This document shows, piece by piece, positions 3,548 to 64,000 of a stretch of 64,000 nt of DNA. A program made the translations under genes and the position numbers. Below the pieces are notes generated by a model that made no database searches, was not told the origin of the DNA, and saw nothing but the letters and a program-made list of their open reading frames with translations. The DNA comes from a virus, in IMG/VR virus record IMGVR_UViG_3300045988_101799; one strand, written 5' to 3'. Numbering within the stretch: the stretch's first letter is position 1; every line of letters starts with the position of its first letter.

Positions 3548-3560
3548 ATAGCTCTATAGT

Positions 3561-3926: not shown

Positions 3927-3945
3927 AAGCACGCTAGAAATTATT

Positions 3946-4307: not shown

Positions 4308-4333
4308 AATCGCTCTACAAAAACAAAACAGAT

Positions 4334-4909: not shown

Positions 4910-5023
4910 CCCAACAATTTCTTGCACTCCTTCGGGTTTCCCGTTTAACTCGGAAGATAATGCAGGAACAAAAAGAACAATACGAACGAAATCCAAAAAG
5001 TTATAACCACTACTATCAAGAAT

Positions 5024-5560: not shown

Positions 5561-5586
5561 TAAAACCCAGATACTATTATCCGTAC

Positions 5587-6735: not shown

Positions 6736-6745
6736 TCCTAAAAAC

Positions 6746-8716: not shown

Positions 8717-9020
8717 CGAATTTACACGCAACCCCTTCGTATGTCGGCTCATCTTTCGTGAAGCTGGCGTTGCCATCTATGAGCTAACCCATAAAGGAAG
8801 CGGGAAGGTAAACAATTATGAGGTTGTCATCATCCGTCAGCACAAAGCGGACAATGATTTCATCAAGGTTAAAGCCGGAGATGAATACCTCCCCAGCACC
8901 AGTGAGTGGGGCCAGTATGGATGGACATTCCCCACTCTTGAACTCGCAAACTACAAAGCCAAACATATCATTCATGAACGTTCTATGGATAAATCAGGAA
9001 GTCACACTTCCGCTAACTAA
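8700..9020 (+). CDS. hypothetical protein
   Basis: 106-aa ORF whose ATG overlaps the ligase stop codon. Confidence 0.45.
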   Translation: MKKIPNEFTRNPFVCRLIFREAGVAIYELTHKGSGKVNNYEVVIIRQHKADNDFIKVKAGDEYLPSTSEWGQYGWTFPTLELANYKAKHIIHERSMDKSGSHTSAN

Positions 9021-10238: not shown

Positions 10239-10239
10239 C

Positions 10240-10746
10240 ATGCACGCTCACGAAGCAATCAACGCAATCGTTTCAACCAAGGTAAACTCACAGGCTTTCC
10301 CCGACCTGCCGGAAGGAAAGGAATCCATGAACGATGCCGTCAACCACCCGAAGCATTACACCTCCCACCCCAGCGGAATCGAGACCATAGAAATTACTGG
10401 CAAGCTTCCCTTCGCATTAGGGAACGCCGTCAAGTATTTGATGCGGTCACAGTACAAGAAGAACCGTATTGAAGACCTCAAGAAAGCACGATGGTATTTG
10501 GAGTACCACGCTAAGCACTGGTCCAAGGTGTTCGAAACGTTTGACCTTTACCTTATCCTTGAACAGTTCAGGCGTACAGTCATGAGCCATAGCTACCAAC
10601 GTAGTCCCGAAGATTCCATTCTGGTACAGCTCTTCTATATCTGGGCGCATGATAAGTTGGTTGAGGTAAACCCCGCATCAGAATTGCAACGATGTATCGG
10701 AGAGATTACCCAGCTAATAGAATCCCTCGAAGCGAAACAGAACTAA
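10240..10746 (+). CDS. DUF3310-like phage protein
   Basis: NHPKHYTSHPSGIETIEI and KY..R..YK resemble the HPSHY/IE..E core of DUF3310 phage proteins (recalled from memory, not searched). Confidence 0.45.
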   Translation: MHAHEAINAIVSTKVNSQAFPDLPEGKESMNDAVNHPKHYTSHPSGIETIEITGKLPFALGNAVKYLMRSQYKKNRIEDLKKARWYLEYHAKHWSKVFETFDLYLILEQFRRTVMSHSYQRSPEDSILVQLFYIWAHDKLVEVNPASELQRCIGEITQLIESLEAKQN

Positions 10747-20900: not shown

Positions 20901-21622
20901 GAGTTGAGGTAATCCTTCCGGGCCTTCTCCATTGTGGTGGCAATGGATTTGGCCACCGCCTTTGCGTTACGGTTTCTGTCCGCGGCAATGGCGAGGAACT
21001 TTTCCGTCACGACGGGGTTCCCGTCCTCTCCACTTCCGAAGCCAGAGCGGGATAAGAAGGCGGAGTGCGTAGGCGTAAGCTCGGAAGAAGACACAACGGT
21101 AATTCCCGTATTGTTAGCAAGCTTCTTAATGGCCTCGCTATCGCCGCGGGAGGCGGCCGTCAAATCAACCAGTGCATCCTCTCCGCGCTCTACATAGTCT
21201 TTCATGTAGTCGAATCCCTCAAAGCTGTACCCACGGTTTCCTTTGTTCAAGATGTCGAGGGCTTTATTTTCCTCGGCGGTTTTCCATTCTTGTTCCGTAT
21301 GGGCGCGGGATTTATCTTGCCATTCTACATTCTTCGCGTGTTCCGCATCCTTTTTCTGTTTCTCCGCAAAGTCATCAACAGACTTAAAGAGGAAGGTGTC
21401 ATAGTCTGCGGTCGCCGTCGCTCCCTTCTCGGCACGGGTCTGTCTCTTTTCCGCTAACCTTTGCTCGCGGTCCAGTGCTTTCTGTTCTCGGTCCCGCTGT
21501 TTCTGCGCTTGCGTCTCTTGCCACGCGGCGTGCCTTTCTACGGCACGCTGTTCACGTGCAATACTACTTCCCGACGTCGGAGTGAAGTCGGACATATTGG
21601 CGGTACTAAAGTCAATAGCCAT
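11927..21622 (-). CDS. giant (3231-aa) virion/cargo-like protein with a central HExxH zincin-like motif
   Basis: Uninterrupted 9.7-kb ORF with an ATG start. Largely helical, Ala/Glu/Lys-rich. VLHEVIHLIDRH is encoded at 17051-17065, near aa ~1520. No P-loop, no T7-like RNAP motifs, no DxDGD found. It is the last large gene of the late operon. TAG stop. Confidence 0.8.
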   Translation of the reverse strand: MAIDFSTANMSDFTPTSGSSIAREQRAVERHAAWQETQAQKQRDREQKALDREQRLAEKRQTRAEKGATATADYDTFLFKSVDDFAEKQKKDAEHAKNVEWQDKSRAHTEQEWKTAEENKALDILNKGNRGYSFEGFDYMKDYVERGEDALVDLTAASRGDSEAIKKLANNTGITVVSSSELTPTHSAFLSRSGFGSGEDGNPVVTEKFLAIAADRNRNAKAVAKSIATTMEKARKDYLNSNLDVGTGKPTAQAIETAPIAYTAEEIESVINTIRREDIGNYRAAKALYDKHRSSSTEGVQKKTPSQTSVGELGVGEFSDSAPSFTGNVFAELANLSKSPSKMFQLVRDYGDYLSRSTEDIKSPESATAYAKQLHTDQAKLISKKEKPVDDRIREQIEAADKIVRRLEEDYTGLPYLELRDALLNPEAAASALLSLVPGADMDAIRARAKVIAEEVHRQKDRPLTVENPEQIGMSEAILEAVATRFPGVPKSALRQAGVTKLIQDYTAKATPRGTLMDAVKGAMANYRSTAGQIADVLTFQPDNSVGKTADPMSLMEWGKGTKRGSWQYGVPGGPSFEVGPEQLKEYMAQYHIESTRDALNSLSHAARMGDLGVGRGSLFAYNPHTKEVDTNATLELNPNALYNDKLMDQSIEALRASGADEGLINRTIEKFQNLRKKSAQELVKDNIALDETLGTLRDTWLGSGLQFNPILTESMKHLDKHLSFKNFYNEQKEAGKSDEDILSAWQEKGQDTINSVLRGLQIGTHKAIDLGTSTAYGALLFAQNAVGSRAAMEHTRTLWDQLNKKQEAEAELVRGNILADYTAEIANLGYQMVATAGAGKVGGLAGRALERTALSRFAKATANVVAKRAEALVPAARPGLAGRLSGTIQRNLDNLAALNLERAGAGAGVNLSIISQVAPNAYSDIFYTIYDREMEGKEPTAENTNRAQSIANMRALFGAALVSTGSTLINNRAGMDSYMRKIVGAKNLRGQSPFQTLERKMAGWRSKPFKEMNTKEKTFAVASYLYSTSKAVVEGATEELTDEFQEWAFTELVKNGEISESSIATTDQVISGAMKIAFLGGIGGYVGSHLAGEGNIRFQTEAAPTLDVKDATSMLPDITKDASNIIEETGKAITKNNVPESLVETGKKVIEIAGEKGDAAEVAREWVDKSIAHESLVVSDETRKAWVDGAVRMGISNFTQFRNLVERASEIHTYEGSAAASSFMAEAINDLPNTLSFPNKENLDTMRTMLSEALDAMGDRVQVIEVDDDLSILTTGDEDLDAALHVINGLTEAAATTESPATTATTEPKESPVAIARKERDNAIAPITAMVETGVVTPSSVETVDNMDAAIASFDSNTGAWLSYGTPLERGAKLVSLNEMTGINAPMITSNTGETIVIAPHASMYNAGEGGTPSTKWGDKVSALNLPTDGTGANAYGILSDLQVNASPAQAAAIDGVLRALHAAGLDVAIRATNAPANISSPASITYMNGTDGKLVGGVIDLYVNRDNAIESVTGTVLHEVIHLIDRHLRTTNTDYSQRMDKIRSAIAENYNNIVDSLSAMYDASVDINEMNAIAALASDLNYGLRGPDEFASVAFSNPVMNFMVAEASGDNITITDLARYAEAAGGRKPIHVRLVEWLKDLIRDVRQTADDMDGTTAAERVAEWDSYVARVADMTPGKWFDMPRTPSWKVDDTDYTMGNGVDYFNPMAYETDMTRRLSFGLGAEIIGTNAGNWVTSIKNGWLGVTKNWDKAGINVKSEEQKLVVLEQMANVNAAYERSIKRIDKIGDMLQRRADNLGWDAATRKKWSKSILDMSGNMDNDIDPETVARINAEAQAEVRQHEQTRDFRIALAKKTVTDAVNRHAEAVRLANSLALNSEGRLEINDMMRRIKDMSGKGYGAMLDKQVALPMLSQQIHKSLSDLGSRISATGDANLETAYFGLARDTQNYLADMINEADSPFSMDELLDRWSNLRNDFLYAESTNHPAVAPMIQDIAKARAEAKQIIREAKEDFYAATKKAGVTRAGVATPAGSVWLKRDNAILNARRQKQAEYMAKRDAAEQWLLSQGVVGQLVHNVIADSRKEIAATQISIAKLIGDSRMADNAAEMNYLHRTYMAVGRHAGDFTRTMKDIIANPNGELAQKYDGLTKLLQEAAISHAEAHQRELSENVSQVLDNMQALAALHDELKLPLVSAPTGASANYKLLFEGVAKNYRNREILDFIQNNFGAVQMLADLRDGHNISAIYDKAMSMIAQADYHTKSKMTETKETLDMKARDSFLAEVFSDLPGKTIADKIGSLDSPASVASEVNKVIPTIPTSAIDQIWNAPNMNAAERLDKTLNLLRGQAGILMGANNMGNVISATDLKVLQYPELSRLAVNDAMKAIDEVLSKKRTNEDALAQRKRLPEWQRKAMYELSDLTIGDAIGTLQNTLSMQSKIAVNQLLADEYTSVLKAQGVVVPPNSTNRTSDMVEISLKNTKNALNGMYADKDVADAIYRIYRPSDDILNSRTDDYKKVRKYWQKSGKGQEWWSKAGGLANLSVLIASPNSTLRNLYGTVAQMTHAGALPFTGSKDIANLVGDWVQLRKLWWLSQGRDLASQASADRLLAAEDRYNEKIRYWQELGLLDAGQGEFLRNVWKSDEFSKMAGEFEEVNEDSFFKLAEALNEKQERTKGEVAKDAAKMAGKVVAWPIKTMSFAYGLPDAAAKIVLFTNQRAIADTQLKVQLARAMGKDTPNARDQILIDASQTTQSWNAYVDRYTAHMVKSLLPTGSRTPSWVKTLNIVAAPFFMFQYHTAQSVVYNLGHAIGEGVDGVWAINNGMKKEGAYLLGRAFVRIAGSVGTISATSAVSSWVARQIITSVLGDDDDRKIIDDAEVMRKLADSGLIPDYDKFGDLIGIIDMKRHEFEYLNLEYMNPFKTIKVLAKTLPSLFMDMDVDKWGMNKVAELKNLLENTVLEESLLLNAASELFNEEDFNYKHSLSGDESVNVLPAVGNAILLAAGLNPSFGSGHTWQVLERFATVANKKIPFYGWAVKSGKQAFSDTPDMSAAAYGLQSLGAGLRRPKDLTEALAAGLKNANAAVTKSKRTSVLRPDFYKRMESGVDVELMEAVETADAVKNFTKLVNSVRFVTEITNMLDPALRKEVLASAIETSGMSAKTYGAAMKGIMPYIISPQAGREAIAKLNRELQKSNTTDEGKRLIEEQKKLIINLMRKGSIQIDGALSAEEIHNRMKQ

Positions 21623-49753: not shown

Positions 49754-50422
49754 TTATTTTTCGTCAGCTTCGGGCTTTTCGCCCTTCTTCTTGAGCTTCA
49801 AGGTGATGGTACGGGCCGCGCTTCCTTCTTCCAGTTCGGGACGGGTTCCGTCCTTGTTCAGAGTTACTGGTCCACCCTGCAATCCCATCTGTGTCACTAT
49901 CTCGGTTTGTTCCAGCTCGAACTGCTGGATGACCTGTGACAGTAGGTCCATGTCGCGCTTCGCAATCGCTTCGTTAAACTTCTCCCACAGACCGTGGCTT
50001 CGCTCCATGATAGAGAGGAAGAGAGGTACATCCTTAATTGATTGTATCTCTGCGTCGGCCATGAAGGAAGCGACACGGGAGAATCCACTGTTCATCAGTT
50101 CTTTGTACTGGCTACTCATGGATTCAACGATGTCAAGCTCTATCTTCGTCCTCGCCTCTTGGCGTTGGAGGATGCGTGCCTGTGTGTTCTGTGTGTACGT
50201 ATTGAGAAGTTCATTGCGGATAGCCAGTTCCTCCTTCGAGAGTTGGACGCTATCAACAATCTTATCAACACGTTCACGGGGGAGGCCAGTAACTTCCGAG
50301 ATGACAGGAACCGGGGTCCCTGCCTTGTACATCTCAATGGCCTTCCTTATAACGGTGTTCTCGTTAGTGATTGGTTTGGGGGCGGCTATCTTTGCGGCGG
50401 CTCTTAAATCCATCAGTTCCAA
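49754..50422 (-). CDS. HTH-containing coiled-coil protein; possible small terminase or DNA-binding protein
   Basis: An N-terminal HTH-like segment (ISEVTGLPRERVDKIV) followed by a long helical region. Confidence 0.3.
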   Translation of the reverse strand: MELMDLRAAAKIAAPKPITNENTVIRKAIEMYKAGTPVPVISEVTGLPRERVDKIVDSVQLSKEELAIRNELLNTYTQNTQARILQRQEARTKIELDIVESMSSQYKELMNSGFSRVASFMADAEIQSIKDVPLFLSIMERSHGLWEKFNEAIAKRDMDLLSQVIQQFELEQTEIVTQMGLQGGPVTLNKDGTRPELEEGSAARTITLKLKKKGEKPEADEK

Positions 50423-52257
50423 AGGGTTTGCATTGCGGCGGTTACGTCGGAGGCAAAGGTGTCGCGGGCAGGAGCGGAGGCAGGAGCGGGGGCATTGCCT
50501 CCGACGAAGCCTCCGAGGTACCTGCCAATGTCTGCGGCTTCGATGTACGCAGTCCCGTCTTCGCGATATTTGATTACCTCTTGATGTTCTACCACCTTAT
50601 GGTTCTGAATGTCAAGCCTAATCTTACCGAACTCCGGCCCCATGATTCCCCGGCACACGTGCACCAATAGTGCTAGTGCGTCCGCGTTGTCCGGGGATTT
50701 ATGAATCCGCTTCTTCATGGCCGCCTTGGGTTCCACGGCAATTCGGGTTCCATTCATGGTGTAGAGCCGGGATTTAAGCTCGACGATAGTTGTCGGGTCG
50801 AGGCCATAAAGTTGGCGAGCGTTGATTGCCAGTTTCATACATCCCCAAAGCTCGGAGACCTTGTTGCTATATTGCTGACATGCCTCCTGATTCTGCAACA
50901 GGCCAATGGGCACTTTGCTCGCCATACCCGCGAAGCTGACCGTCTGGAAGTCTGTGCCGACATGCTGGGCGAGGATGTCGATGAAACCAGTACCTCCGGT
51001 TACGTCCACGGCAAGGTACTTACTTTCAACCCCGTTGGCCCGGAGAATCTCTCCAACTTGCTGGGCGATGTCGAAGTTTCGTTGCTTCATCCGTTCCTTG
51101 TCGGACGTAGACTTCAACAAATAGGTACGGAAGACTGCACAAGCCCAAAGCCCTTCAACCGTTCGTCCGACTTTGGCGAGTTTAAGGCAGGACTGGTCGC
51201 CGCCGTTGGTGTAGGCAGGGTCCAATCCTGCGATGGTAATCAACTCGCCGTCTCCCCAGACGGGCATGGCATCCGCGCCACTGCCGTAAATTTCAGCCTC
51301 CGACATTAGTGAACCTTCTTCCGTATCATCTGAAAAGGTAGCCCGGTGGAACCGCATCACGAACGGACTATTCTCCCCGTACTGTTCAATCGTTTGCTGA
51401 ACGATGTTCAACGGGGTGTAGAAGCTCCAATCCTCGCGGCCATATTTGATGCGGGGGTTTTGAGTGTTATCGAAGCGGATGTAAATCCCGTCCTTGGTCT
51501 CCCATTCATATTCCTCAAAGATGTCAACGCTGTTCCACCCATCCTTGGGCATAGCCATAACACCAAAGGCATCGGTGCGGCTCTTGGGGTTAGAGGCGGC
51601 CATCAGGGTAGGCGGCGTGTCCGCTCTGTTGGTGATGAGGTTGGTACGCCACACCTCGACGAGTTCAATCGGCAATTCGGAAAGCTCGTCATAAAATACG
51701 TGCATGTTCTTTGCCTTAATACCGATAAATCGGCTACTGGGGTCGCCGACGTTCGCGCAGGGGATAATGGAGATGCCGCGGGAATCATCAATATCTCCGT
51801 CCTCGTTCACGCCTTTAATCTGTCCCTTACCATCAACGAGCTTACCCGGAAATTCCTTGCGCCACAACCGTTTAATATCCTTGAAGATACGTTTCTTCGC
51901 ACCCTCAATAGTAGTCGATGTGACTAGGCAAAGAGTATCGACGGGGTCGGCCAGATAGAAGAGCGTCGCCATGATAGCCATAGATAATGACTTCCCAGAG
52001 GACGAGCCTCCACCCATGATGACCACATCATATTTGCACGCGGTTTCAATCATCCGTTCAATCCACGGTGTCCAGATAATGGGAGTAGGACTGCCCTTGT
52101 AATTCCACAGGAGATTGATGGCGTTCTTAGCGTGTCCATACCTGCCCAGCCCTCCCTTCTCTTCGGGCCATGCGTATTTGAAGCACCAGAGTTCGATGTC
52201 CAATTCCGAAACTCCGTACTCCCATTGTCGTCCATAGCGGGTAAAGTGTCGTGCCAT
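50413..52257 (-). CDS. terminase large subunit
   Basis: Walker A (VIMGGGSSSGKS), Walker B-like (VFYDELSE), and a C-terminal RNaseH-like nuclease half with conserved acidic residues. ATG start. Confidence 0.8.
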   Translation of the reverse strand: MARHFTRYGRQWEYGVSELDIELWCFKYAWPEEKGGLGRYGHAKNAINLLWNYKGSPTPIIWTPWIERMIETACKYDVVIMGGGSSSGKSLSMAIMATLFYLADPVDTLCLVTSTTIEGAKKRIFKDIKRLWRKEFPGKLVDGKGQIKGVNEDGDIDDSRGISIIPCANVGDPSSRFIGIKAKNMHVFYDELSELPIELVEVWRTNLITNRADTPPTLMAASNPKSRTDAFGVMAMPKDGWNSVDIFEEYEWETKDGIYIRFDNTQNPRIKYGREDWSFYTPLNIVQQTIEQYGENSPFVMRFHRATFSDDTEEGSLMSEAEIYGSGADAMPVWGDGELITIAGLDPAYTNGGDQSCLKLAKVGRTVEGLWACAVFRTYLLKSTSDKERMKQRNFDIAQQVGEILRANGVESKYLAVDVTGGTGFIDILAQHVGTDFQTVSFAGMASKVPIGLLQNQEACQQYSNKVSELWGCMKLAINARQLYGLDPTTIVELKSRLYTMNGTRIAVEPKAAMKKRIHKSPDNADALALLVHVCRGIMGPEFGKIRLDIQNHKVVEHQEVIKYREDGTAYIEAADIGRYLGGFVGGNAPAPASAPARDTFASDVTAAMQTLWN

Positions 52258-55008: not shown

Positions 55009-56356
55009 TTGATGTTAATGCGTTAAAGCAAATTTCTTTTGTGTTGAGTGATTGTATGATTCGTTCCTCCACCGTACCGGAGGCGGTCACAATGTACTGC
55101 AAGGTGTGTGACTTTGCACCGAGGCGGGCGATACGTCCTTGAGCTTGCAGGAGTGACGAGAGGGAAAAATCGGGCGAGATAAGTGCGGCGCGGGGGTGGC
55201 CTCCCTCGGTATCGTGAAGCGACACCCCAGTTCCTCCTGCACTAATCTGCACGAGAGCGAGAGGAACTTCATTCCGTTGGAACTTGTCCACCTCTTCCTG
55301 TCGGTTCTTCCCAGTCACCGCTCCACTAATCTCGGAGTAGGGAACTGTTCTCCCCGATTTATTGTTAATGAGTTCCGAGAGTGTGGAGAGACTGTCGAGG
55401 AAAGACACGAAGATGGCGACGCTATATCCACTATCCAGAAGTTCGACTGCCTTCTCTGCCATCGTGGGGAGCTTAGCCAATTCAGATTGCTGGCGAAGCC
55501 GAAGGAGTTCAACGATAGCAGGAAGTTCGATTCCCTTCTCGTTAGCCCGTTCGATGGACTGGTCCCATGATTTGTCCAGCTTGTCAAGTGCTTTCTGTAA
55601 TTGTTTAATCTCTTTCATACCTTTCATGTCTACGTCCACGGACAGATATTCGATTCTATTCTCCGGGAAGAATGTGTCAAGTCTATCCTTGTCAATCTCT
55701 GTCATAACCCCAGCAGTGAAGAGCTTTTGTTTCAGGTTCTCCATCATGGCGTGGTTACGTGGGTTGAGCTTAAACTCGATACCTCCCCAGAAGCTGTCGG
55801 TGCATCCGTGCATACGTGCCCAGAGCCAGAACCCTCGCCGGGGGTCTTGAATCCACTTGGCATATGTTGCGGGGACACTCATATCGAGGGGAGACATAAA
55901 AGGAGTGGCAGAGAGCATAATCGTCGGAAGTCCTTGATGGGCCGCAGTTAATGCCATGATGTTGCTTTGGCTACCATAGGTTTTGGCCTTATGGCTTTCA
56001 TCAAGGACCAGCAAGGAATCGTCGGGAAGGGTCCAAGCCCCGAAGACTATCCGGGACTTGGGAACCTTTGTAGGGCGTTTGTAGTAGGAGGTACTTCCCC
56101 TGCGCACCTTCTCCCATGAGAGGACATCCACCGCGTCCGCTCCTTGCTGTTCAATCGCTCGCTTCCATTGGGTCACTACGATGGCAGGGCAGACGACGAG
56201 AAGTCTCTTGCCCATAGCCTTCGCGGTTTCGATAGTAACCAATGTCTTCCCCGTACCCGTGCAGGATTTATTTATCACATAGCCGTGCCGGGTAATTGCA
56301 TCCACCATATCGTGGATGCAATCTTCTTGAGGAGGGAATGGAGTAAGTGCGCTCAT
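55001..56356 (-). CDS. SNF2/DEAD-like superfamily 2 helicase
   Basis: Walker A GTGKT, DExH box (VLDESHKAKT), motif VI QAQGRIARLG. Confidence 0.8.
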   Translation of the reverse strand: MSALTPFPPQEDCIHDMVDAITRHGYVINKSCTGTGKTLVTIETAKAMGKRLLVVCPAIVVTQWKRAIEQQGADAVDVLSWEKVRRGSTSYYKRPTKVPKSRIVFGAWTLPDDSLLVLDESHKAKTYGSQSNIMALTAAHQGLPTIMLSATPFMSPLDMSVPATYAKWIQDPRRGFWLWARMHGCTDSFWGGIEFKLNPRNHAMMENLKQKLFTAGVMTEIDKDRLDTFFPENRIEYLSVDVDMKGMKEIKQLQKALDKLDKSWDQSIERANEKGIELPAIVELLRLRQQSELAKLPTMAEKAVELLDSGYSVAIFVSFLDSLSTLSELINNKSGRTVPYSEISGAVTGKNRQEEVDKFQRNEVPLALVQISAGGTGVSLHDTEGGHPRAALISPDFSLSSLLQAQGRIARLGAKSHTLQYIVTASGTVEERIIQSLNTKEICFNALTSNG

Positions 56357-58272
56357 TTGCGATACTTGTCCATGATTTCAGGTTCGGCAAGGAGCGGAAG
56401 GGATGAAGCCCACTGCGGAGTTTCTTCCATTATCTGTTCGATGCGCTGGGCGTATTCCTCGGCACGGTCAGCCGGAACCATCACTACGGCTTCGTCATGT
56501 ACGAGAAGGATAGGTTGCGCACCCTCTAATTCCTTGCACAGGCGGTTGAACGTGCGGACCATGAGGTCACGTGCGATTGACTGGATGTTATTATTGCTAA
56601 GGAGGTTAGTATTGACAATGGAGGACTTGTATCCGAAATCGACGCAGGTTGCGAAATAGGGACGACGACCATCCTTGGGTTGAATGAGTTTCTTGTAACA
56701 GTTACGATAATAGAGCTTCCGGCCAGAGGGAAGGGAGAGCGCGAAGCTATGGGAGGGGGTACGATAGCCGCGAGCCGCTAATGCGTCCAACTCTCTCCAC
56801 CATGCCACCACTTCCGGGCTACGACTGCGGTACATGTCCACAATCGCTTGGCACTGGTCCCTGTCCATTCCGGGGTTCGAGCGTTGAATAGCCTTCCATC
56901 CAGCACTAAAGCCGCAAGCAAGTACCCCCGCCTTCACATGCTGACGAAGGTCCGCTTGCCCCGGAGTTTCCTTGCAGTACTGTTTGAAGTCCTTGACATC
57001 CGCGGGGATGAGGCCCCAACCTTTCGCGTTAGCGGCATAGATGTCCTTCTCACCAGCACGGAGGGTATCAAGAATTTTCTCCTGCCCGCAGAGCCAAGCG
57101 GTCAGACGTGCTTCAATCCCGGCCCAGTCACATACCACGAGCTTATACCCTTCGGGTGCTTGAATGGCGTTGCGCTGGTTAAAGCCCAGAACGTCTTCAC
57201 GGTTAAGCTGTTGCAGGTTGAGCTTGTCGCCCCCGGCAGTCCAACGGCCCGTGCTTGCGCCACAGTAGGTCAGCGTATAGGGGAGACGTTCTATCCCTTC
57301 ATGGTCAGTATAGACGCGGGAAAGCATGCGCTCGGTAATGCTAATCATGCGGTTCACGCTCCTGTACTTCCCGATAAGAGTTACCCACGGGACGAGGTGG
57401 CCATACTCTTCCAGCCAGTCCGTAAAATCTTCGCTGGACTTGCTGGTGGTTGTGGGGGGCGGGATGTTCAGTTCCTCGCACGCTCTACGTAGTTGGGGAA
57501 TGGAGAGTTTCTTTTCAAGCGGGATAGCTTCCTTGTATTCCTCCTGTGCCTGATGGAGTTTCTCCAATCCGTCAAGAAGATACTGACGGGAAGTCGGAAC
57601 TCCGCGCCATCCCATGATGCAGGTATTGAGCCAACAGGCGCGTTCATCTTCCGGCCAGAAGTTCTTCATCTTGTCCCACAAGGCGAGACAGTAGTAACTA
57701 TCGCCCGCCACGTATTCCTTCATGTCGTCGGGGATGACCTCCATCTTGCGGAAGTCAACGCCTTCGGCCTTGGCTCGGACTTCCTTGCTAATCTCTACAC
57801 CCCAAAGCTTTGCGACAATCTTGTCAAGAGAGCCATAGATGGCAAGATAGTTGGAAGCGGCACGGGAACAGAGCCACTCCTTGAAGGGCGGCCGGAAACT
57901 GGGAGTACATGGGATGCCCTTGGCCCCCGGCGCGTGAAGACCGAAGAGGTAAACGGCATAGTCGAAGCTGGCGTTAAACGCGACGAGGGTTTTGTCCTTC
58001 GTAGTTTTCTCCCAGTCAAAATCCTTCGGATGTCCTACCCAGCAATACTTCCCGTCATAGACGGACATGATGTATGCGTCGAACCGTGGGTCCAGACAGT
58101 AGGAATGCGGGTCCATGCACTTGAGGGAGTAGTTGCCCTCGTAGTATGTTTCAAAGTCAACGGCAAGAGTATCGCCTGTGAGTTTGGTCTGGTCGTCTGT
58201 AATCTCCATTTCATACCCCGGAATGCGAGGCAGTGAAAATGATATAGGGTTCTTATCTAATTCTTCGTGCAT
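56353..58272 (-). CDS. family A DNA polymerase with a 3'-5' exonuclease domain
   Basis: Exo I (LAVDFET); motif A (VVCDWAGIEARLTAW); motif B-like (RQHVKAGVLACGFSAG); motif C (LVHDEAVV). Start set at ATG 58272, which overlaps the MazG-like stop as ATGA. Confidence 0.85.
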   Translation of the reverse strand: MHEELDKNPISFSLPRIPGYEMEITDDQTKLTGDTLAVDFETYYEGNYSLKCMDPHSYCLDPRFDAYIMSVYDGKYCWVGHPKDFDWEKTTKDKTLVAFNASFDYAVYLFGLHAPGAKGIPCTPSFRPPFKEWLCSRAASNYLAIYGSLDKIVAKLWGVEISKEVRAKAEGVDFRKMEVIPDDMKEYVAGDSYYCLALWDKMKNFWPEDERACWLNTCIMGWRGVPTSRQYLLDGLEKLHQAQEEYKEAIPLEKKLSIPQLRRACEELNIPPPTTTSKSSEDFTDWLEEYGHLVPWVTLIGKYRSVNRMISITERMLSRVYTDHEGIERLPYTLTYCGASTGRWTAGGDKLNLQQLNREDVLGFNQRNAIQAPEGYKLVVCDWAGIEARLTAWLCGQEKILDTLRAGEKDIYAANAKGWGLIPADVKDFKQYCKETPGQADLRQHVKAGVLACGFSAGWKAIQRSNPGMDRDQCQAIVDMYRSRSPEVVAWWRELDALAARGYRTPSHSFALSLPSGRKLYYRNCYKKLIQPKDGRRPYFATCVDFGYKSSIVNTNLLSNNNIQSIARDLMVRTFNRLCKELEGAQPILLVHDEAVVMVPADRAEEYAQRIEQIMEETPQWASSLPLLAEPEIMDKYRK

Positions 58273-58655
58273 CAGTGTTTGGGTGTATTTAGTTGTTCCT
58301 TCGCTTGCGCGTAGTATTCTTGGGGTGTGCTCATAGGAATTCCGGCGGTTCTGTCCTTCTTGTACAGTTTCACGGCACGGTTCATGCGGTTTACGACTTC
58401 CCGGCATTTTTCGTTTGTGAGGAATATCCCATCCTCAAAGGAGAAACCTTCATCCCGTCCGGTCGCCGCGACGAGGCGCAATGCGAGAATGGCGATGTCG
58501 GTTGCCTCCTTTACGCGGTCCTCCGCGTCAGCTTCCCGGTATTCTTCAATCTCCCACAGAAGATGGCGCAGGAGGTCAGCGGCGGATTCCTCTAATCCCA
58601 TATAGGAGAAGTGGGAATCAACAGTTTGGGCGGCGATGGCAATTTCGTTGTACAT
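58272..58655 (-). CDS. MazG-like nucleotide pyrophosphohydrolase
   Basis: EExxE...E..D metal-binding pattern (LLWEIEEYREADAEDRVKEATDIA). Size 127 aa. Confidence 0.5.
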   Translation of the reverse strand: MYNEIAIAAQTVDSHFSYMGLEESAADLLRHLLWEIEEYREADAEDRVKEATDIAILALRLVAATGRDEGFSFEDGIFLTNEKCREVVNRMNRAVKLYKKDRTAGIPMSTPQEYYAQAKEQLNTPKH

Positions 58656-59377: not shown

Positions 59378-62263
59378 CTATCCTACAATTACTTCTTGGC
59401 GTTGTTTGTCCTGTTCTTCCCATTCGGGGAAGTCCCGATACCAACGGGCCTTAGTACTGTCGCTTGCGTACTTGAGCCAGTCCTCTACATAAAGGAACCT
59501 CATGCGCCTCCTTCCTCCCGACATCTGTTTTGCTTTCCACAATGCTTCATCTTGGAAGTAGGTAACGACGGCTGTCTTAAACCCGGTGATGGCCTGACGC
59601 TTAGGAACGTTGTTGGAACGGGGCTGGTCGGTTACTACTCCTGTATCTCGAATGGTGTAGAGAATTTGCAGGAGAGCTTGCGGCCCCGTATAGGTGAGAG
59701 GAATGCGCTTCCACAGGGGGTTGCCATCCTTGTCCGTATCTACATCCCAATCAACGGGACGAAGCTGGGTTACAAAGGATTCTTCCGCGGATTCCCGCAT
59801 ACCATACTTGGTGTTTATCTCTTGGGACTTCTGCACTACTCGGTCTACCAACTCGTTAATGTCCTCGCTTAGTGAGTGGTAGTTCTGATGCACTTGTGCC
59901 CATAGTTGCTGTATATCTATGGAATCACGGACCTTCTTCGCCTTTGCTAGGTCTCCTCCCACACTGCGGACATAAAGGACAGAGTAGCGGCGGTTCCCCG
60001 TAGTATCCGTCAGCGGGTTGGGGTCGTTGGTAGTACCAATGAACACTGCCTTCGGATTATACTTCTGCTGGTTGCGCTGGTATGCCGCACGGGTTTTAGC
60101 AGGTTGGAGGTCAAGGGAGTTCTTCACTTCGTTAGCCTTATCCGGGTCCGAGAGGATTCGGTCAATCTCGTCCAGCTGGATGACATGGGTACTGCTCTTC
60201 TGCACGATAGCATCCTTCTCGTTGCGAATGTCGAAGCTACCCGAAAAGCATCCGGGATAGTTGGCAAGAAGCTTAGTAGTCCAATGGGATTTACCGCATC
60301 CTTGGCCCCCAATGAAGATGGGGCAGAAGATGGAGCACATGTTGTTGACATCCTCCATCGACTTCTCCACGTGGTCGATAACCGTGTAGAGCCATGTACG
60401 AAGCACGAATTCGAGCCATTCCTTCTCGGTATAGCCTTCCGGGGCCATGCCCTCTTCCAGTTCGAGGGTATGGATGTACTGTCCCACTCGGTCAATACCA
60501 TCCCAAGGCTTTACGCGCAGTGTGGAAGCGAGGGGGTGATAGAAGTAGTTGGTGGAGACACTAAGGAAAGTTGCGTCCAGTTCGTGTTGTACTTTGGGAG
60601 TGGACATCCCTCCGGCCAGATATTTGGCCCACTTGCCCGCGATGTGGTTCACGAATTCCGGGTCGTAGGGGTAGAGCTTTTTACCCACGAGGTCCAATAC
60701 CAGCTTGGTATCATTGGCAACATCGGTCACAATGCGGAGACCAATAGAGGCAAGAAGGAATTCAACGTTCTCATATATTACGGGAACAGTGCCTCTCTTC
60801 TGGTCTCTGGTCGGGAAGTCGAAGTCAGCCCAGCGTTCCGGTTTCTTCGCCTGATAGTGCTTCCCTTCCGGCAGAGGTCCGGCCTCGGCTAGGATTTTCT
60901 TTAACGCCTCGTCGGGGTTATATATCTTAGCCAGTAGGGATTCGGATTCAGATTCCGAAGCGGAGGGTGCGATGGGAGCGATGTCTCTGTTCTCGATGTC
61001 CAGCACATACATGCGGAACAGGTCATTCATGCTCTTCACCTTCCGGTCCTTGTCTTGGCAGGAGCTATGGAGGCAATGGAACCATGAGGTAGATGGGAAG
61101 TCCCGGACAATGTTGAATTGAAGGTCCCGGTCAGCACGATGCCCCGTACATACATGGGCGCATGCGGGGCACATGCCGTACATGTGATTCCCTTCCCAGC
61201 GCATTGCCCGGAAGCCCTCGGCCTGTTCGGTGTAGCCATTATCGTCCAGCCACTTGGGGAACTCGGAGATAAGAATGGGAAGCGGGTCCCGCTCGGTCAG
61301 GAGGTCATCCTCTGCCGCGGGAGCCACGGTTTCCTTGGTAGCCCGTTCGACCAGCTTGTCAAGGGAGGGCACGGTAAATACCCGCGGCGTATCCTTAGCC
61401 CGTTCCACCAACTCCCCGTGGTAGAGGAACTGCAACCGGGAGATGTCCTTACATGCGGGGTCGCAGGTCAGACCGGAGAGGTTGTACACTTGGTCCCACA
61501 GGTATTTGCAGATTAGCTGGTGGCGAGCCTGACGAATAGCCGCGAGGTACTTGCCCATGTCAGGGATATGGGTATCCGTGGAATCCGTGGAATCCGTGGA
61601 ATCCGTGGAATCCGTGGAATCCGTGGAATCCGTGGAATCCGGGGGTTCCGAGATGTTGAGAGCCTCGCGTGCCCGTTCATCGACTTGGACGAAGAACTTG
61701 AACCCGCCGCTGGGGCTGACGTACCCGAACAAGTAACCGGGCAAGTGGGAGAGCTTATCCTCGGCAATGCGTTTAAGTTCCTCCGTAGTGGCGGGGTTCG
61801 TATCTTCATCCTTCTTCTTTAGGTCAATGTCCAGACCAATGATGCCGGAGTGGGACCAGAAGGAGATAGCCCGGCGCAATGCGGTACGTGGGTCAACGGT
61901 CTTCTTATTCTCGCCCAGCATAGATGAGACGGAATGGAAGATGACGGAAGGGATGAGGGCAGGAAGCGCGTTCTTGACCTTCACCTCACCGTCAGGGCTA
62001 TTCTCCTTCCATCGGGTATAGACCTTCTCATAGGCGGGAGCCAATGGCGCACGAAGCGGCCGCCCTGCCTGTTTATCGAGAAGGAGTGATAATTGGAGAC
62101 TTGTCTTTAACCGCTCGTCCGCGATGTCGTTACTGCGGAGGAAGTTAATGAGACAGTCGATTGTAATTGCCTGTGGATTCTTTCCGCTTCCGGTAAAGAC
62201 GCGAGGAGCGTTACTCCGCTCCAACAAATCCCAAGGCGTGGGGATTAGAGTAATGGATTGCAT
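59378..62263 (-). CDS. primase-helicase (P4/D5-type; zinc-binding primase N-terminus plus SF3-like NTPase)
   Basis: Zinc motif CPACAHVC...H..C..C. Walker A FIGGQGCGKSHW. Walker B VIQLDEID. The track start at 62308 is a GTG codon; ATG 62263 (MQSITLIP) is preferred. Contains an (STD)x7 repeat. Confidence 0.7.
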   Translation of the reverse strand: MQSITLIPTPWDLLERSNAPRVFTGSGKNPQAITIDCLINFLRSNDIADERLKTSLQLSLLLDKQAGRPLRAPLAPAYEKVYTRWKENSPDGEVKVKNALPALIPSVIFHSVSSMLGENKKTVDPRTALRRAISFWSHSGIIGLDIDLKKKDEDTNPATTEELKRIAEDKLSHLPGYLFGYVSPSGGFKFFVQVDERAREALNISEPPDSTDSTDSTDSTDSTDSTDSTDTHIPDMGKYLAAIRQARHQLICKYLWDQVYNLSGLTCDPACKDISRLQFLYHGELVERAKDTPRVFTVPSLDKLVERATKETVAPAAEDDLLTERDPLPILISEFPKWLDDNGYTEQAEGFRAMRWEGNHMYGMCPACAHVCTGHRADRDLQFNIVRDFPSTSWFHCLHSSCQDKDRKVKSMNDLFRMYVLDIENRDIAPIAPSASESESESLLAKIYNPDEALKKILAEAGPLPEGKHYQAKKPERWADFDFPTRDQKRGTVPVIYENVEFLLASIGLRIVTDVANDTKLVLDLVGKKLYPYDPEFVNHIAGKWAKYLAGGMSTPKVQHELDATFLSVSTNYFYHPLASTLRVKPWDGIDRVGQYIHTLELEEGMAPEGYTEKEWLEFVLRTWLYTVIDHVEKSMEDVNNMCSIFCPIFIGGQGCGKSHWTTKLLANYPGCFSGSFDIRNEKDAIVQKSSTHVIQLDEIDRILSDPDKANEVKNSLDLQPAKTRAAYQRNQQKYNPKAVFIGTTNDPNPLTDTTGNRRYSVLYVRSVGGDLAKAKKVRDSIDIQQLWAQVHQNYHSLSEDINELVDRVVQKSQEINTKYGMRESAEESFVTQLRPVDWDVDTDKDGNPLWKRIPLTYTGPQALLQILYTIRDTGVVTDQPRSNNVPKRQAITGFKTAVVTYFQDEALWKAKQMSGGRRRMRFLYVEDWLKYASDSTKARWYRDFPEWEEQDKQRQEVIVG
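61573..61640. repeat. 9-bp tandem repeat (ATCCGTGGA) x7.5 inside the primase gene, encoding (STD)7
   Basis: Exact tandem copies; in-frame. Confidence 0.85.
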
Positions 62264-62400
62264 ACTTTTATGTGTAAGGCATAGGGGCGTGGACGGCGTA
62301 GTCCGCACCCTCGTGGCCTATGGTTTGAATTGCCGAACGGTGTCCGTCGGTGTCCAAAGCTACCACGGGTTCCGGGGGTTGTCAAGTAGAATCTACGGCC

Positions 62401-62930
62401 TATAACAAGCACGTAACAAGCAATATTTAGAGTAGTTGTTACGGTAAGTGATTGAGTATATACGACTTAACAACTATAACAAGCATAACAAGCAAAAATC
62501 GTAGTTAAACGTGTACGCACCTCGTCCTCGTGCCGTATGGCGGTCGCGCTACGCGCTCCGCGGACCATGTTTTTATGATAGGGACAGGGCTAAATCGAAG
62601 AGGTATTGAAACTGAATGAGTTAGCGTAACAACCTATCAAAATCTCGACGTAAGATGTTAAGAGCCAAGGACTTAACAACTGAAGCACGAAAGAGGTTGT
62701 TACGCTGGACCATTGAAACTGAATGAGTTAACAACTATAACAAGCAAACAAGCAAATTCTACAGACTCTATATATGTGTATATATGGCCTCCCCTATACC
62801 CTCTTTTCTTATATATCTTCTATTTTTGCTTGTTTTGGTTGTTATAGTTGTTAAACTATTAAAAAAGAAGGGGTTAGCGTAACAACTACTCTAAATCATA
62901 CTTGTTATAGGTTGTTAGTAGATGTTACAA
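62401..62930. repeat. iteron-rich, AT-rich non-coding region; putative origin of replication
   Basis: Direct repeats TTAACAACTATAACAAGCA (62466, 62727; inverted copy at 62826-62853). ATTGAAACTGAATGAGTTA at 62604 and 62711. An 18-bp inverted repeat (62424-62441 / 62878-62895) bracketing the region. A GC-rich core at 62510-62570. An AT-rich TATATATGTGTATATATGG tract at 62765-62830. All immediately upstream of the primase gene. Confidence 0.4.
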
Positions 62931-63000
62931 GATTGAGAATGAATGGATTAAGAGAACAGCATTGGGCGTCAGCCCCTTATGAGTATGGGGTTCTCCGGCT

Positions 63001-63044
63001 AAAGAAAAACCCTTCGGAAGCAGGACATGCCTACCTCCGAAGGG
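63001..63044 (-). terminator. candidate rho-independent terminator for leftward transcription
   Basis: Stem CCCTTCGGA(A)G / CTCCGAAGGG with a 15-nt loop. On the minus strand it is followed by TTTTTCTTT. Confidence 0.4.
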
Positions 63045-63078
63045 CTACGCCTTGGGAACATCAACCTAGGAGATGGGT

Positions 63079-63152
63079 GACAGGAGGGCGTTGCTTCGAG
63101 TAGGTCTTACTTCTTACCTTACTGCCTACCCTCCGCGCGTTGCCCTCCTGTC
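63079..63152. repeat. 11-bp perfect inverted repeat (GACAGGAGGGC / GCCCTCCTGTC) enclosing a 52-nt loop; a TATAAT hexamer follows at 63159-63164
   Basis: Reverse complement verified. Confidence 0.6.
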
Positions 63153-63271
63153 TGGCCGTATAATACCAGCCCGCTCGAAAAAGTCAAGACAATCCTCTGC
63201 CAATATGTTATTTTGTTATGCACGCGTATATACGCGCCCACATGTGTGTATGCACCATCTCCAAATCCCCT

Positions 63272-63328
63272 GAATTTAATCGAGGGTCCTACCCTAGAAC
63301 GCGCCGCACGGGGCGGTCCGCTACAACT
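63272..63328. repeat. direct repeat copy A (GAATTTAATCGAGGGTCCTACCCTAGAACGCGCC...GGTCCGCTACAACT)
   Basis: 34 bp identical to copy B at 63750-63783, with a further ~20 bp of partial identity. Confidence 0.75.
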
Positions 63329-63749
63329 GTCCACCCGGACCCCATCCCCTCCTTCTACCCCGCCACACTGGATTAAATTCGTAAACGCGCCATCACACCA
63401 ATTTCCTCTTGACTTTCTCCCCTGATGTGATATGTTGCACCTGTTCGCTCCGAACGGCAACCGAACCAGCTAAGCTCAATGCTTCTGGCTATCCCAAGCA
63501 AGGAACTTGCTCGCCACAGGAGCGGACCAAACACTCTCCTTTCTACAGGCATTTTCCATAGTTACGCCCGTGGGTAGTCTCGTCAAGCTACCTGCGGGCT
63601 TTTTCTTTACCGCCAAATCCGCGAGAGCCGCTCCGACGCATCATGCCCGCCGTGCGCAAATTTGGTCGATGGTAGTGCCCTATCTCCTGTTTCATGACTA
63701 ATGTACCCTCTCGCTACCTATACCCCGTCACACTCTTGTAAATTTGCCC

Positions 63750-63806
63750 GAATTTAATCGAGGGTCCTACCCTAGAACGCGCCACAACCGCTGGTCCGCT
63801 ATAACT
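63750..63806. repeat. direct repeat copy B
   Basis: See copy A; the spacing between copies is 478 bp. Confidence 0.75.
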
Positions 63807-63847
63807 ACCCGCCCGAAGAGTATACCCGCCTTCTAGGTCGATACGTC

Positions 63848-63972
63848 CCCGTGGAATGGCCGCATGTCGATTTTGCTTGACGTGGCAGGAATGGGGTGCA
63901 GACCAGATGAGGCTGAAACAGACCAGAAGTATATTCCACCCGTGGAACGGCCGCGTGTCGATTTTGCTTGAC
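63848..63972. repeat. second direct repeat pair (CCCGTGGAAYGGCCGCRTGTCGATTTTGCTTGAC x2, 91 bp apart)
   Basis: Copies at 63848-63881 and 63939-63972 with 2 mismatches. Each ends in a TTGAC(A/G) -35-like hexamer. Confidence 0.7.
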
Positions 63973-64000
63973 ATGCCCAGAAGGGTACCCCCTCCCCCGT

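Follow-up and report, generated by a model that had tools for sequence, protein, structure and literature searches.

The Reps of SaPI elements are self-loading initiator helicases, in which a C-terminal winged helix binds the iterons (PMC9371898). SaPI origins contain 6-12 penta- or hexanucleotide iterons, divided equally between the two sides of an AT-rich centre; no fewer than two are present per side, and the two sides are oppositely oriented (PMC9371898). A common order of primase, SF3 helicase and winged helix is found in P4 alpha and pRN1 ORF904 (PMC2777425).

The window analysed here is a 64-kb stretch of DNA from a phage lineage of ~70 kb found in human gut metagenomes, which is without a cultured or annotated relative and in which most large proteins match no family. 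A non-coding region of 530 bp in this window was originally predicted to be an iteron-type origin. On balance, we consider that the region probably is a phage replication origin, composed of iterons and an AT-rich centre and served by the primase-helicase encoded 137 bp away. The sequence-based tests agree with the original prediction, while its anatomy had to be revised, GC skew lent it no support and the region proved to be one module of a larger hub.

When words were counted in the region, 16 copies of TAACAA/TTGTTA were found within 62403-62917, and this hexamer is the common core of the region's words. The region represents 0.83 % of the sequence yet holds 16 of the 32 copies in the window (binomial P = 2.6e-25). 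Simulation with the region's own dinucleotide content gave an expectation of 0.82 ± 0.91 copies with a maximum of 5, so the repeats are real and far exceed chance. No second TAACAA cluster was found elsewhere in the 64-kb window. The many short words reported originally were also recovered: all five window copies of TAACAAGCA lie inside 62403-62746 (0.39 expected from 100 window shuffles, none of which reached 5), as do four of the five window copies of GTAACAAC inside the region. The two copies of ATTGAAACTGAATGAGTTA are exact (62605 and 62712). At least three copies had been claimed for TTAACAACTATAACAAGCA; two of them are exact (62467 and 62728, plus strand) and the inverted one (62836-62854) has one mismatch. 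DnaA boxes (TTATCCACA, at most one mismatch) gave 17 window matches against 13 expected, none of them within 62000-64000. A scan of IMG/VR with TAACAANNNTAACAANNNTAACAA returned more than 120 unrelated matches, giant-virus (GVMAG) contigs included, and this pattern was therefore rejected as too unspecific to trace the element.

The words are arranged in the following order (strand given where the feature has one).

62403..62496: promoter-proximal iteron module 1, near-invariant in ten relatives
62403 and 62414: TAACAAGCA pair of module 1
62426..62443: left arm of the 18-bp inverted repeat, TTTAGAGTAGTTGTTACG, an exact match to the right arm at 62878-62895
62435-62442: inverted GTAACAAC word of module 1
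62468-62494: triple array A of module 1, TAACAACTA TAACAAGCA TAACAAGCA
62508..62570: GC-rich block, between module 1 and the central modules
62605..62706: middle words, with ATTGAAACTGAATGAGTTA at 62605 (second copy at 62712) and TTAACAACT at 62673
62623-62635 and 62694-62706: arms of an exact 13-nt inverted repeat, with GCGTAACAACCT (62624) and AGGTTGTTACGC (62694)
62729..62754, plus strand: iteron array B, left flank of the candidate unwinding element, TAACAACTA TAACAAGCA AACAAGCA
62755..62826: spacer of 72 bp and 31 % GC proposed as the DNA-unwinding element; contains (TA)n tracts, with GGCCTCCCCTATA at its centre
62827..62854, minus strand: iteron array C, right flank of the spacer, TGCTTGTTT TGGTTGTTA TAGTTGTTA A, inverted with respect to B
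62877..62917: distal words GCGTAACAACTA (plus), CTTGTTATAGG (minus) and GGTTGTTAG (minus), including the right arm 62878-62895

The exact 18-bp inverted repeat brackets ~470 bp and lies at the core of a longer one of 34 nt (88 % complementary). It had been predicted with its left arm at 62424-62441, which is 2 bp off. A GC-rich core of ~60 bp was likewise present as predicted (67 % GC in 62508-62570 compared with 38 % for the whole region), and GC-rich 9-mer arrays occupy the equivalent place in L013 and L027. The AT-rich unwinding tract, in contrast, had been placed next to this block, and this did not hold: the best candidate lies ~185 bp off, between facing arrays. These triple arrays (B and C) have a period of ~9 bp and face each other across the 72-bp spacer. 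When nearest-neighbour free energy was calculated along the 64 kb, the windows of lowest stability were 62795-62864 (70 bp) and 62769-62868 (100 bp), both overlapping the spacer and array C. The locus thus has a melting-prone AT-rich centre with at least two opposed words on each side (B on the plus strand, C on the minus strand), as SaPI origins do. From the sequence, we infer that the functional core would be 62696-62886 and not the whole bracketed block.

Two small ORFs (44 and 32 aa) inside the region were considered and rejected, as indels among the relatives interrupt their frames; no conserved ORF was found in the region. Because the region is non-coding and such frame-breaking indels occur, it does not resemble a lambda-type origin with iterons inside the initiator gene.

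When the window was aligned with ten close relatives (11 sequences), only 3 of 96 hexamer-core positions were variable compared with 100 of 445 positions elsewhere (Fisher P = 6.6e-7); by this count the hexamer cores are under purifying selection. The cores of array B are kept in relatives, and the third TTGTTA of array C is intact in several of them. Outside this close group, blastn of the region against L012/L013 (primase 64 % identical) gave nothing alignable. In three distant lineages with primases 49-64 % identical, convergent TAACAA words nevertheless flank the least stable 70 bp of the whole locus.

L013: words at 1444+ and 1452+ facing 1538- and 1546- (z = 4.2)
L027/L044: word at 5494+ facing 5581- and 5590- (z = 4.3)
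L045: word at 1590+ facing 1675- and 1684- (z = 4.4)

In four lineages, facing arrays around least stable DNA are thus located 440-540 bp upstream of the primase operon, and the motif CCCCTATA was found again in the L013 and L027 spacers. TAACAA words cluster upstream of the primase gene in five of six distant loci (L012/L013, L027, L028 and L014) and are nearly absent in L015, for which 253 bp was available. The word itself is unchanged in lineages down to 44 % primase identity. Judged from these comparisons, the design is kept across lineages without sequence conservation. A DNA similarity search gave no match among 50,697 deposited phage genomes or in plasmids.

The genes to which the argument refers are as follows.

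59378..62263, minus strand: primase-helicase gene (961 aa), presumed to encode the initiator
56353-58407: family-A polymerase gene
50413-52257: terminase gene, 10 kb from the region

The primase starts at ATG 62263 and not at GTG 62308; the region therefore begins 137 bp upstream of the ATG of this minus-strand gene, so that it is immediately adjacent to the gene. The N-terminus of the protein carries a weak BT4734-like/VirE_N domain; further on are a Cys/His cluster (about aa 365-403) and a VapE/D5-type SF3 ATPase (about aa 547-820), and the C-terminal part is conserved. Pfam analysis of the 961-aa protein gave E = 1.1e-27 for VapE-like_dom and E = 8.6e-4 for BT4734-like_N. In a sequence search of the PDB, SaPI1 Rep (7pds) was the sole significant match (E = 1.2e-8), and it was the ATPase region that matched. 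An AF2 model of aa 541-961, built from a 126-sequence alignment, had a pLDDT of 79. When it was compared using Foldseek, the best matches were the 7pds chains (E ~1e-11; 420-453 aligned columns, almost all of either protein), which ranked above NrS-1, poxvirus D5/E5 and SaPI5 PriRep5; identity to SaPI1 Rep in the fold alignment was 13-16 %. Sequence and model together identify the neighbouring protein as a homologue of Rep-type SF3 helicases.

Its last 40 residues are 42 % invariant compared with 33 % overall among relatives 48-99 % identical, and such conservation of the C-terminus fits a conserved word. No Pfam family, the winged helix included, matched the last 162 aa even at a threshold of E = 5; this part is covered by the fold alignment, with a local model confidence of 41-93 that is moderate for aa 830-960. 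In some lineages (L013, L028 and L015) an extra gene of 288-337 aa is located between the region and the primase gene. Its product has no Pfam match, is of winged-helix type in appearance and could be the real binder in those lineages. Relatives of the primase were not found in the representative genomes of 185,579 bacterial and archaeal species (one per species), and thus gave no clue to a host or prophage.

These observations suggest a scheme with initiator binding, melting, a bidirectional start and autoregulation. The C-terminal part of the 961-aa SF3 primase-helicase would recognise TAACAA, and the facing arrays B (62729-62754) and C (62827-62854) would place two helicase rings on either side of the spacer. 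The (TA)n-rich 72 bp would melt, and the rings, like SaPI Rep, would be self-loading and need no separate loader. The fused primase domain would then make primers, which the family-A polymerase would extend both ways. The remaining words, in module 1 (62403-62496), in the middle and distal parts and in the nested inverted repeats, would probably serve cooperative or looped binding. They would probably also allow autoregulation of the initiator, since module 1 ends 18 bp from the -35-like hexamer of the promoter-like site in the primase arm.

Skew was computed on a pseudo-complete genome, made of the window and the missing 3.5 kb taken from L001. The cumulative GC skew has its maximum at 63104 and its minimum near 20000, so that the minimum is not at the region and the maximum that lies there has the wrong sign for a bidirectional origin. 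However, the GC and AT skew extrema coincide with gene-arm boundaries; as the skews track gene orientation, we take the GC skew to be uninformative rather than contradictory.

The transcription signals around the region bear on a different explanation, and they are listed here.

62355..62385, minus strand: promoter-like site of the primase arm, with TTGACA (62385-62380), a 17-nt spacer and TAGCTT(TG) (62362-62355)
62998..63187, minus strand: small transcription unit aimed at the iteron region, from the promoter and terminator scan
63187-63160: promoter-like site of the small unit
63152-62998: predicted RNA of ~155 nt of the small unit
63046-63008: 17-bp terminator hairpin of the small unit

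The site in the primase arm was read directly from the sequence, and a simple consensus scan did not list it. In the window and likewise in L013, L027 and L028, four lineages in all, TTGACA-N17-TAnnnT precedes the primase operon. One match to the Bacteroidota-type promoter TAnnTTTG overlaps the -10-like hexamer (62362-62355) and was rejected because other lineages conserve TTGACA-N17-TAnnnT and not this match. The spacer of the site contains two 9-mers of a second repeat family (AACCCCCGG AACCCGTGG). The iteron region is thus placed between a terminator and a promoter-like site, and between divergent gene arms.

From this setting it could be argued that the region is a transcriptional control array, in which the TAACAA words are operators or activator sites for a regulator, of phage or host, that times the promoter of the replication-and-structural arm, with no role in starting replication. 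Promoters and operators are expected between divergent arms, a distance of 18 bp separates the words at 62403-62422 from the -35-like TTGACA, the arrays are ~30 bp from the -35 hexamer in L028 and also abut the equivalent promoter-like site in L027, and a promoter-like match (TTGTTA-16-TATACT) is located inside array A. We nevertheless regard this explanation as possible but unlikely: 16 sites over 515 bp far exceed what a promoter needs, the conserved core is in four lineages located 440-540 bp ahead of the operon and not at the promoter-like site, and Pfam found no repressor-like or HTH protein in the ~50 ORFs scanned. In iteron replicons the iterons commonly also autoregulate the initiator gene. 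As a dual role is common there, transcriptional control may be a further function of the iteron region and not a competing one.

The region is one module of a non-coding hub of ~3.2 kb that extends past the window end, in which further repeat arrays are present together with sites resembling promoters and two small-RNA candidates. The repeat families of the hub include hypervariable 9-mer arrays, which share a CNNCGG core and occur in every lineage, and arrays of 19-mers, which occur in the close lineage. In L027 the CNNCGG-core arrays bracket the hub as inverted repeats of 35 nt, perfectly complementary and 2.36 kb apart. These other families could equally be, or belong to, an origin. The predicted ~155-nt RNA folds with an MFE of -68.4 kcal/mol (z = -4.5), its unit is 93-99.5 % identical in close relatives, and pairing of the terminator stem is preserved in L013 by double changes. 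Rfam gave no family over the whole window, nor at a relaxed threshold over the L011 non-coding region. A wider scheme can be drawn from these elements, in which the iteron region is a module of the conserved hub and replication is coupled to the early-to-middle transcription switch. The structured RNA, transcribed toward the origin and ending at its edge, would prime initiation, license it or titrate the initiator, and the CNNCGG 9-mers would form a loop of the hub by way of a second DNA-binding specificity that evolves fast. We hold this scheme to be doubtful.

It is improbable that the region is instead a packaging or terminal region (pac/cos or the flank of a terminal repeat), with the repeats as terminase or end-processing sites. 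It does lie in a long non-coding stretch that heads both transcription arms, and in T7- and N4-like phages the genome ends are at the head of the transcription arms. Many of the ~70-kb metagenome contigs also end in this stretch; however, most of the ends examined fall within long tandem arrays of 9-mers or 19-mers, at a distance of 2.5-2.9 kb from the primase gene, and none is in the TAACAA region. The ends therefore point to assembly breaks, and genome termini were rejected as the cause of their clustering. Breaks at other places in the genome are seen in further full-length contigs, which is the behaviour of circular or permuted assemblies. The distance to the terminase gene is 10 kb, and facing hexamer arrays around a melting-prone centre are not known as a design of terminase sites. 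As a separate observation, the fragment contig L004 ends at the primase ATG, ~140 bp from the TAACAA region.

Arrays of short direct and inverted repeats are also typical of type II centromeres and of integrase arm sites, and the repeat arrays upstream of the operon resemble both. A partition centromere (parC/parS-like), or an attP with arm-type sites, of a phage with an episomal or integrated lifestyle is nonetheless very improbable. The 219-kb contig L040 starts inside the primase gene and could hint at integration, but no primase relative is present among the representative genomes of the 185,579 species. Pfam found no ParA, ParM, ParB, integrase or recombinase in the ~50 ORFs and the early-arm ORFs of L011, a scan in which ~3.5 kb of the genome lies outside the window and four L011 early-arm ORFs (4503-6787) were included. 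A repeat-rich spacer without function, or the decayed remains of a MITE-like mobile element, as an exact 18-bp inverted repeat enclosing ~470 bp might suggest, is scarcely credible, since the words are under strong purifying selection, the design is at the same position in lineages with primases 49-64 % identical, the region is single-copy in the window with no similar DNA in phage or plasmid collections, and its flanks are without target-site duplication.

Taken as an origin, the region follows an iteron/AT-rich design that is already known. It is a candidate supported by comparison among lineages, for which both a putative initiator and a recognition word of 6 bp can be named. This gives biochemistry a handle, as protein-DNA binding can be approached without knowing the host. 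It is also a reference point for replication-rate estimates (peak-to-trough ratio, metagenome read depth) and a candidate minimal replicon.

Among known systems, the origins of lactococcal phage c2, T7 and T4 are non-coding, lie between divergent blocks and have a small transcript or promoter directed toward AT-rich DNA. Here, too, the iteron region is bordered by the end of a predicted structured RNA (~155 nt), but a strong terminator separates this RNA from the iterons. The origins of iteron plasmids and lambdoid phages are close to or inside the initiator gene, and their iterons often repress the initiator promoter. As in the theta plasmids and lambdoid phages (RK2, pPS10, lambda ori), repeated initiator-binding words would adjoin an AT-rich unwinding element. 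However, the iterons of those replicons are 17-22 bp long, mostly direct and on one side of the unwinding element, and their initiators are not helicases and require DnaA or DnaB and a loader, whereas no DnaA box is near the phage region.

In the P4 ori/crr system, alpha combines primase, SF3 helicase and origin recognition in one polypeptide, as the phage protein would. The type I iterons of P4 are short repeats, direct and inverted, which build its origin. Unlike the phage protein, alpha has a DnaG-type primase domain, and it requires a second, distant repeat cluster (crr), for which the window has no TAACAA counterpart.

The SaPI ori resembles the phage locus: both have hexanucleotide iterons in two facing groups across an AT-rich segment, beside a gene for an SF3/D5-type helicase, which in SaPI5 is also fused to a primase. 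SaPI1 Rep is the closest relative of the phage helicase in sequence and fold among solved structures. The phage element differs in being upstream of its gene, whereas SaPI origins are downstream of rep, and in having 16-19 words over ~515 bp in three modules, compared with 6-12 in SaPI, together with nested inverted repeats and a GC-rich block. The phage protein is twice as long as Rep and has the BT4734-like N-terminal domain, and it belongs to a 70-kb phage in which no lysogeny genes were detected, in contrast to a satellite. With the candidate origin, the SaPI-type design of a self-loading helicase and facing hexamer iterons would reach beyond small Gram-positive satellites and include a large gut phage, a useful extension that leaves the concept itself unchanged.

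The hexamer TAACAA/TTGTTA is the unifying element of the non-coding region 62401-62930, upstream of the minus-strand primase-helicase gene (59378-62263). Half of the window's 32 copies (16) fall within 62403-62917 (binomial P = 2.6e-25), against 0.82 ± 0.91 copies expected from simulated sequences with the region's own dinucleotide content. TAACAAGCA occurs five times in the window, always in this region (0.39 expected). The words listed in the original prediction were all found here, and the GC-rich block was located at 62508-62570 (67 % GC). The exact 18-bp inverted repeat exists as well (62426-62443 and 62878-62895), its first arm having been misplaced by two bases. Three alike modules of about 62 bp were recognized, each with one inverted GTAACAAC word, a spacer of about 25 bp and three direct units with a period of about 9 bp.

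Words, modules and promoter-like site (window coordinates)
62435-62496, plus strand, module 1
62696-62757, plus strand, module 2
62825-62886, minus strand, module 3
62403, 62414, 62627, 62674, 62902 and 62912, further single words
62385-62357, upstream of the primase gene, promoter-like site TTGACA-N17-TAGCTT

The facing modules 2 and 3 are separated by a 72-bp spacer (62755-62826, 31 % GC) holding (TA)n tracts and GGCCTCCCCTATA. When nearest-neighbour free energies were calculated, the lowest-stability 70-bp (62795-62864) and 100-bp (62769-62868) windows of the entire 64 kb both fell on this spacer and the adjoining word array (62827-62854, minus strand). Because the least stable DNA of the 64 kb sits there, this spacer between modules 2 and 3 is the likely unwinding element, and not the tract beside the GC-rich block that had been proposed.

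In an alignment of the window with ten relatives (89-95 % identical over 62264-63010), substitutions and indels were frequent between the words and almost absent within them. Variable positions numbered 3 of 96 in the hexamer cores versus 100 of 445 elsewhere (Fisher P = 6.6e-7). Small ORFs inside the region are ruled out by 1- and 2-bp indels among relatives.

The distant relatives have primases 64 % (loci L012 and L013), 49-50 % (L027, L044, L045 and L014) and 44 % (L028) identical to that of the window. Using blastn, nothing alignable to L012/L013 was found within 62401-62930, and the sole match in the region to the shorter loci L014 and L015 was a marginal 44-nt match to L014 (62451-62494; E = 2e-4); this comparison covered these four loci. 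TAACAA copies are concentrated upstream of the primase operon in L013 (7 of 8), L027 (10 of 14), L028 (6 of 9) and L014 (3 of 4); for L015, with just 253 bp of upstream sequence, the figure is 1 of 2. In every locus with sufficient upstream sequence, convergent words flank the 70 bp of lowest duplex stability in the entire locus.

Least stable 70 bp in distant relatives (locus coordinates)
L013, 1500-1569, z 4.2, flanked by the perfect 23-nt inverted repeat AAAAAATAACAACATAACAACCT
L027, 5509-5578, z 4.3, flanked by words at 5494 (plus) and at 5581 and 5590 (minus)
L045, 1606-1675, z 4.4, flanked by words at 1590 (plus) and at 1675 and 1684 (minus)

In all four lineages the centre sits 440-540 bp before the start of the primase operon's first gene, and the window, L013 and L027 have the motif CCCCTATA in their spacers. 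Units repeat every 9 bp in the window and L027 and every 8 bp in L013, whereas L028 has periods of 9 and 11 bp. An extra gene for a protein of 288-337 aa lies between the iteron region and the primase in L013 (2042-2989), L028 (238-1104) and L015 (254-1267). Its product has no Pfam match and no homologue in the window by tblastn; its C-terminus looks like a winged helix-turn-helix, and in these three lineages this protein may be what binds the origin or operators instead.

The N-terminus of the 961-aa primase-helicase weakly matches BT4734-like/VirE_N, and the protein also has a Cys/His cluster and a VapE-like P-loop domain. For a profile of six family members, the single significant solved relative was 7pds_A (E = 1.2e-8), the DNA-bound SaPI1 Rep helicase (PMC9371898). 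An AlphaFold model of residues 541-961 (126-sequence alignment; pLDDT 79, pTM 0.73) gave the six 7pds chains as top fold matches (E ~1e-11; 420-453 aligned columns, essentially full length), followed by the NrS-1 helicase region, poxvirus D5/E5, AsfvPrimPol and SaPI5 PriRep5. SaPI Reps are self-loading initiator helicases in which a winged helix at the C-terminus recognizes iterons, 6-12 penta- or hexanucleotides on both flanks of an AT-rich centre, at least two per side and in opposite orientation, and two hexamers are thought to load, flanking this centre (PMC9371898). The domain order primase, SF3 helicase and winged helix is common to P4 alpha and pRN1 ORF904 (PMC2777425). A Pfam search for a winged helix in the last 162 residues of the phage protein gave no match; invariant positions make up 42 % of its last 40 residues versus a protein average of 33 %. 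An in-frame 9-nt tandem repeat (about 61574-61639, codons 209-230) encodes (DST)n in a linker of the N-terminal region, with about seven copies in the window and about four in the relative L011; its copy number is therefore strain-variable.

The element is real, conserved and well structured, and is best read as an origin. We regard 62401-62930 as the probable replication origin of the phage, with its core at 62696-62886, and infer binding, melting and initiation from anatomy, word statistics, conservation and protein kinship. In this model, recognition of TAACAA would bring the primase-helicase to either side of the spacer, where it would assemble, melt the spacer, self-load and make the primers for the phage polymerase. 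The primase-helicase might also restrain its own expression via module 1. Such self-limitation is possible because the TAACAA words nearest the promoter-like site, assigned to module 1, end 18 bp from its -35-like TTGACA; the form of this site is conserved in four lineages.

The phage is known from human gut metagenomes only; its genome measures roughly 68-70 kb, of which the window represents about 64 kb. Close or distant relatives of the primase are present in 11 IMG/VR contigs and 17 metagenome contigs, and none of 50,697 deposited phage genomes showed DNA-level similarity to the window. The divergent arms are separated by a non-coding stretch of about 3.2 kb, running from the primase ATG (62263) to beyond the window end (6788-10024 in L011), of which 62401-62930 is the AT-rich, primase-proximal sixth.

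Gene arms of the window
11270-62263, minus strand, primase-helicase, family-A DNA polymerase, SNF2-type helicase, PD-(D/E)XK nuclease, large terminase subunit and a 3231-aa ORF
1-10746, plus strand, small ORFs, NAD-dependent ligase and ThyX

Cumulative GC skew at 63104 is a peak, not a minimum. Since both GC and AT skews follow gene orientation, with AT-skew extrema (62382 and 10819) at the arm boundaries, skew is uninformative on the origin. No DnaA boxes were found in or near the region. The 3231-aa ORF (11927-21622, minus strand), without match in Pfam, PHROGs or NCBIfam, has a GC skew opposite to the remainder of its arm. Among the 25-nt stretches preceding 41 minus-strand genes, those listed are A-rich, and by eye hardly any carries a Shine-Dalgarno motif, a pattern also seen in Bacteroidota and their phages. 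Despite this, the best-conserved promoter-like motif before the primase operon is TTGACA-N17-TAnnnT. Contig ORSC01000004 (219,338 bp) is three times the genome length and starts within the primase gene (first 7.4 kb seen), and OKTX01000053 (99,153 bp) represents 1.4 genome lengths; integration, concatemers or chimeric assembly could account for both.

The non-coding stretch contains a second repeat family, tandem 9-mers with a CNNCGG core. Two units lie in the window, within the spacer of the promoter-like site of the primase gene (62363-62380), and at least four each in L027, L014, L013 and L028; the edge arrays of L027 form a perfect 35-nt inverted repeat with arms 2.36 kb apart. In the close lineage, long 9-mer and 19-mer arrays (about eight copies of the 19-mer) lie past the window end. 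Despite the common core, the 9-mer unit is strain-specific (CCCGGTTCC, CGGCTTCAA, TTCAACGGG, CCCACGGAA, GCCACGGTA, GAACCCCCG). Hypervariable tandem arrays sit at both edges of the stretch.

Hypervariable arrays (locus coordinates)
L011, 7004-7451, beyond the window end (roughly window 64850-65300)
L034, L039, L010, L042, L035 and L009, contig starts
L027, 3228-3351 and 5711-5899
L028, 1-50
L014, 23-58 and 174-207

Many 70-kb metagenome contigs are broken within the 9-mer/19-mer arrays. These arrays might belong to the proposed origin, be the origin in its place, or serve as regulatory sites. Two candidate small RNAs were also predicted.

Candidate small RNAs
62998-63187, minus strand, candidate 1 (about 155 nt), promoter-like TTGACT-16-TATTAT with extended TG at 63187-63160
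63409-63612, plus strand, candidate 2 (about 170 nt), divergent from candidate 1, promoter-like site at 63409-63436

Candidate 1 comprises a long hairpin and a 17-bp terminator with T-run (63046-63008), and the RNA has an MFE of -68.4 kcal/mol (z = -4.5). Its 3' end coincides exactly with the border of the iteron region. Close relatives share it at 93-99.5 % identity, pairing of the terminator stem is kept via double changes in L013, and Rfam gave no match. By eye, L027 seems to have a unit of like layout and other sequence (about 5136-5310). Candidate 2 has a 13-bp terminator (63566-63599) followed by a T-run, and its MFE is -57.6 kcal/mol (z = -4.1). The surrounding 63001-64000 is GC-rich and non-coding, with strong C excess on the plus strand, and is better conserved than the adjacent primase gene, as identity to L012/L013 is 85.7 % versus 73 % (coding DNA). 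Within it, a sequence of 89 nt occurs twice (63269 and 63747), as does one of 47 nt (63848 and 63939) carrying GTCGATTTTGCTTGAC, a motif also found four times in L027; the GTCGATTTTGCTTGAC-bearing repeats may be an array of phage-specific promoters. That origin, adjacent conserved small RNA and hypervariable 9-mer arrays form one integrated control hub is quite doubtful.

The closeness of the words to the promoter-like site speaks for a transcriptional operator array. We consider this unlikely due to the number and spread of the sites, the conserved core far upstream and the lack of any detectable regulator gene in Pfam scans of about 50 ORFs; operator function may come on top of origin function instead of competing with it. 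A packaging or terminal site is very improbable: many contigs end within the non-coding stretch, and the fragment contig L004 ends at the primase ATG, about 140 bp from the TAACAA region, but the contig ends examined lie mostly inside tandem arrays and none in the TAACAA region, and other full-length contigs break elsewhere. A centromere or attP is less probable still, as no Par protein or integrase was found in Pfam scans of about 50 ORFs plus early-arm ORFs of L011, and no primase relative among one representative genome for each of 185,579 bacterial and archaeal species. A decayed mobile element is hardly credible: the selection acting on the words and the conserved position of the element both contradict it.

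For a gut phage lineage that is otherwise opaque, the origin reading is a useful result; it is directly testable in vitro, although conceptually unsurprising. Classical plasmid and lambda iteron origins follow the same general principle; their direct repeats of 17-22 bp flank the unwinding element on a single side, and their initiators are non-helicase proteins. Among known systems, the SaPI origin with Rep/Pri-Rep comes closest: it has in common with the region the word length, the facing layout about an AT-rich centre, a helicase gene next to it and the protein family. However, the phage element lies upstream of the helicase gene whereas the SaPI origin lies downstream. The words of the phage element are also more numerous and fall into three modules, together with nested inverted repeats and a GC-rich block. 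Its carrier is a large phage in which lysogeny genes were not detected, SaPI being a satellite, and its protein is much longer than SaPI Rep/Pri-Rep, with another primase-type N-terminus.
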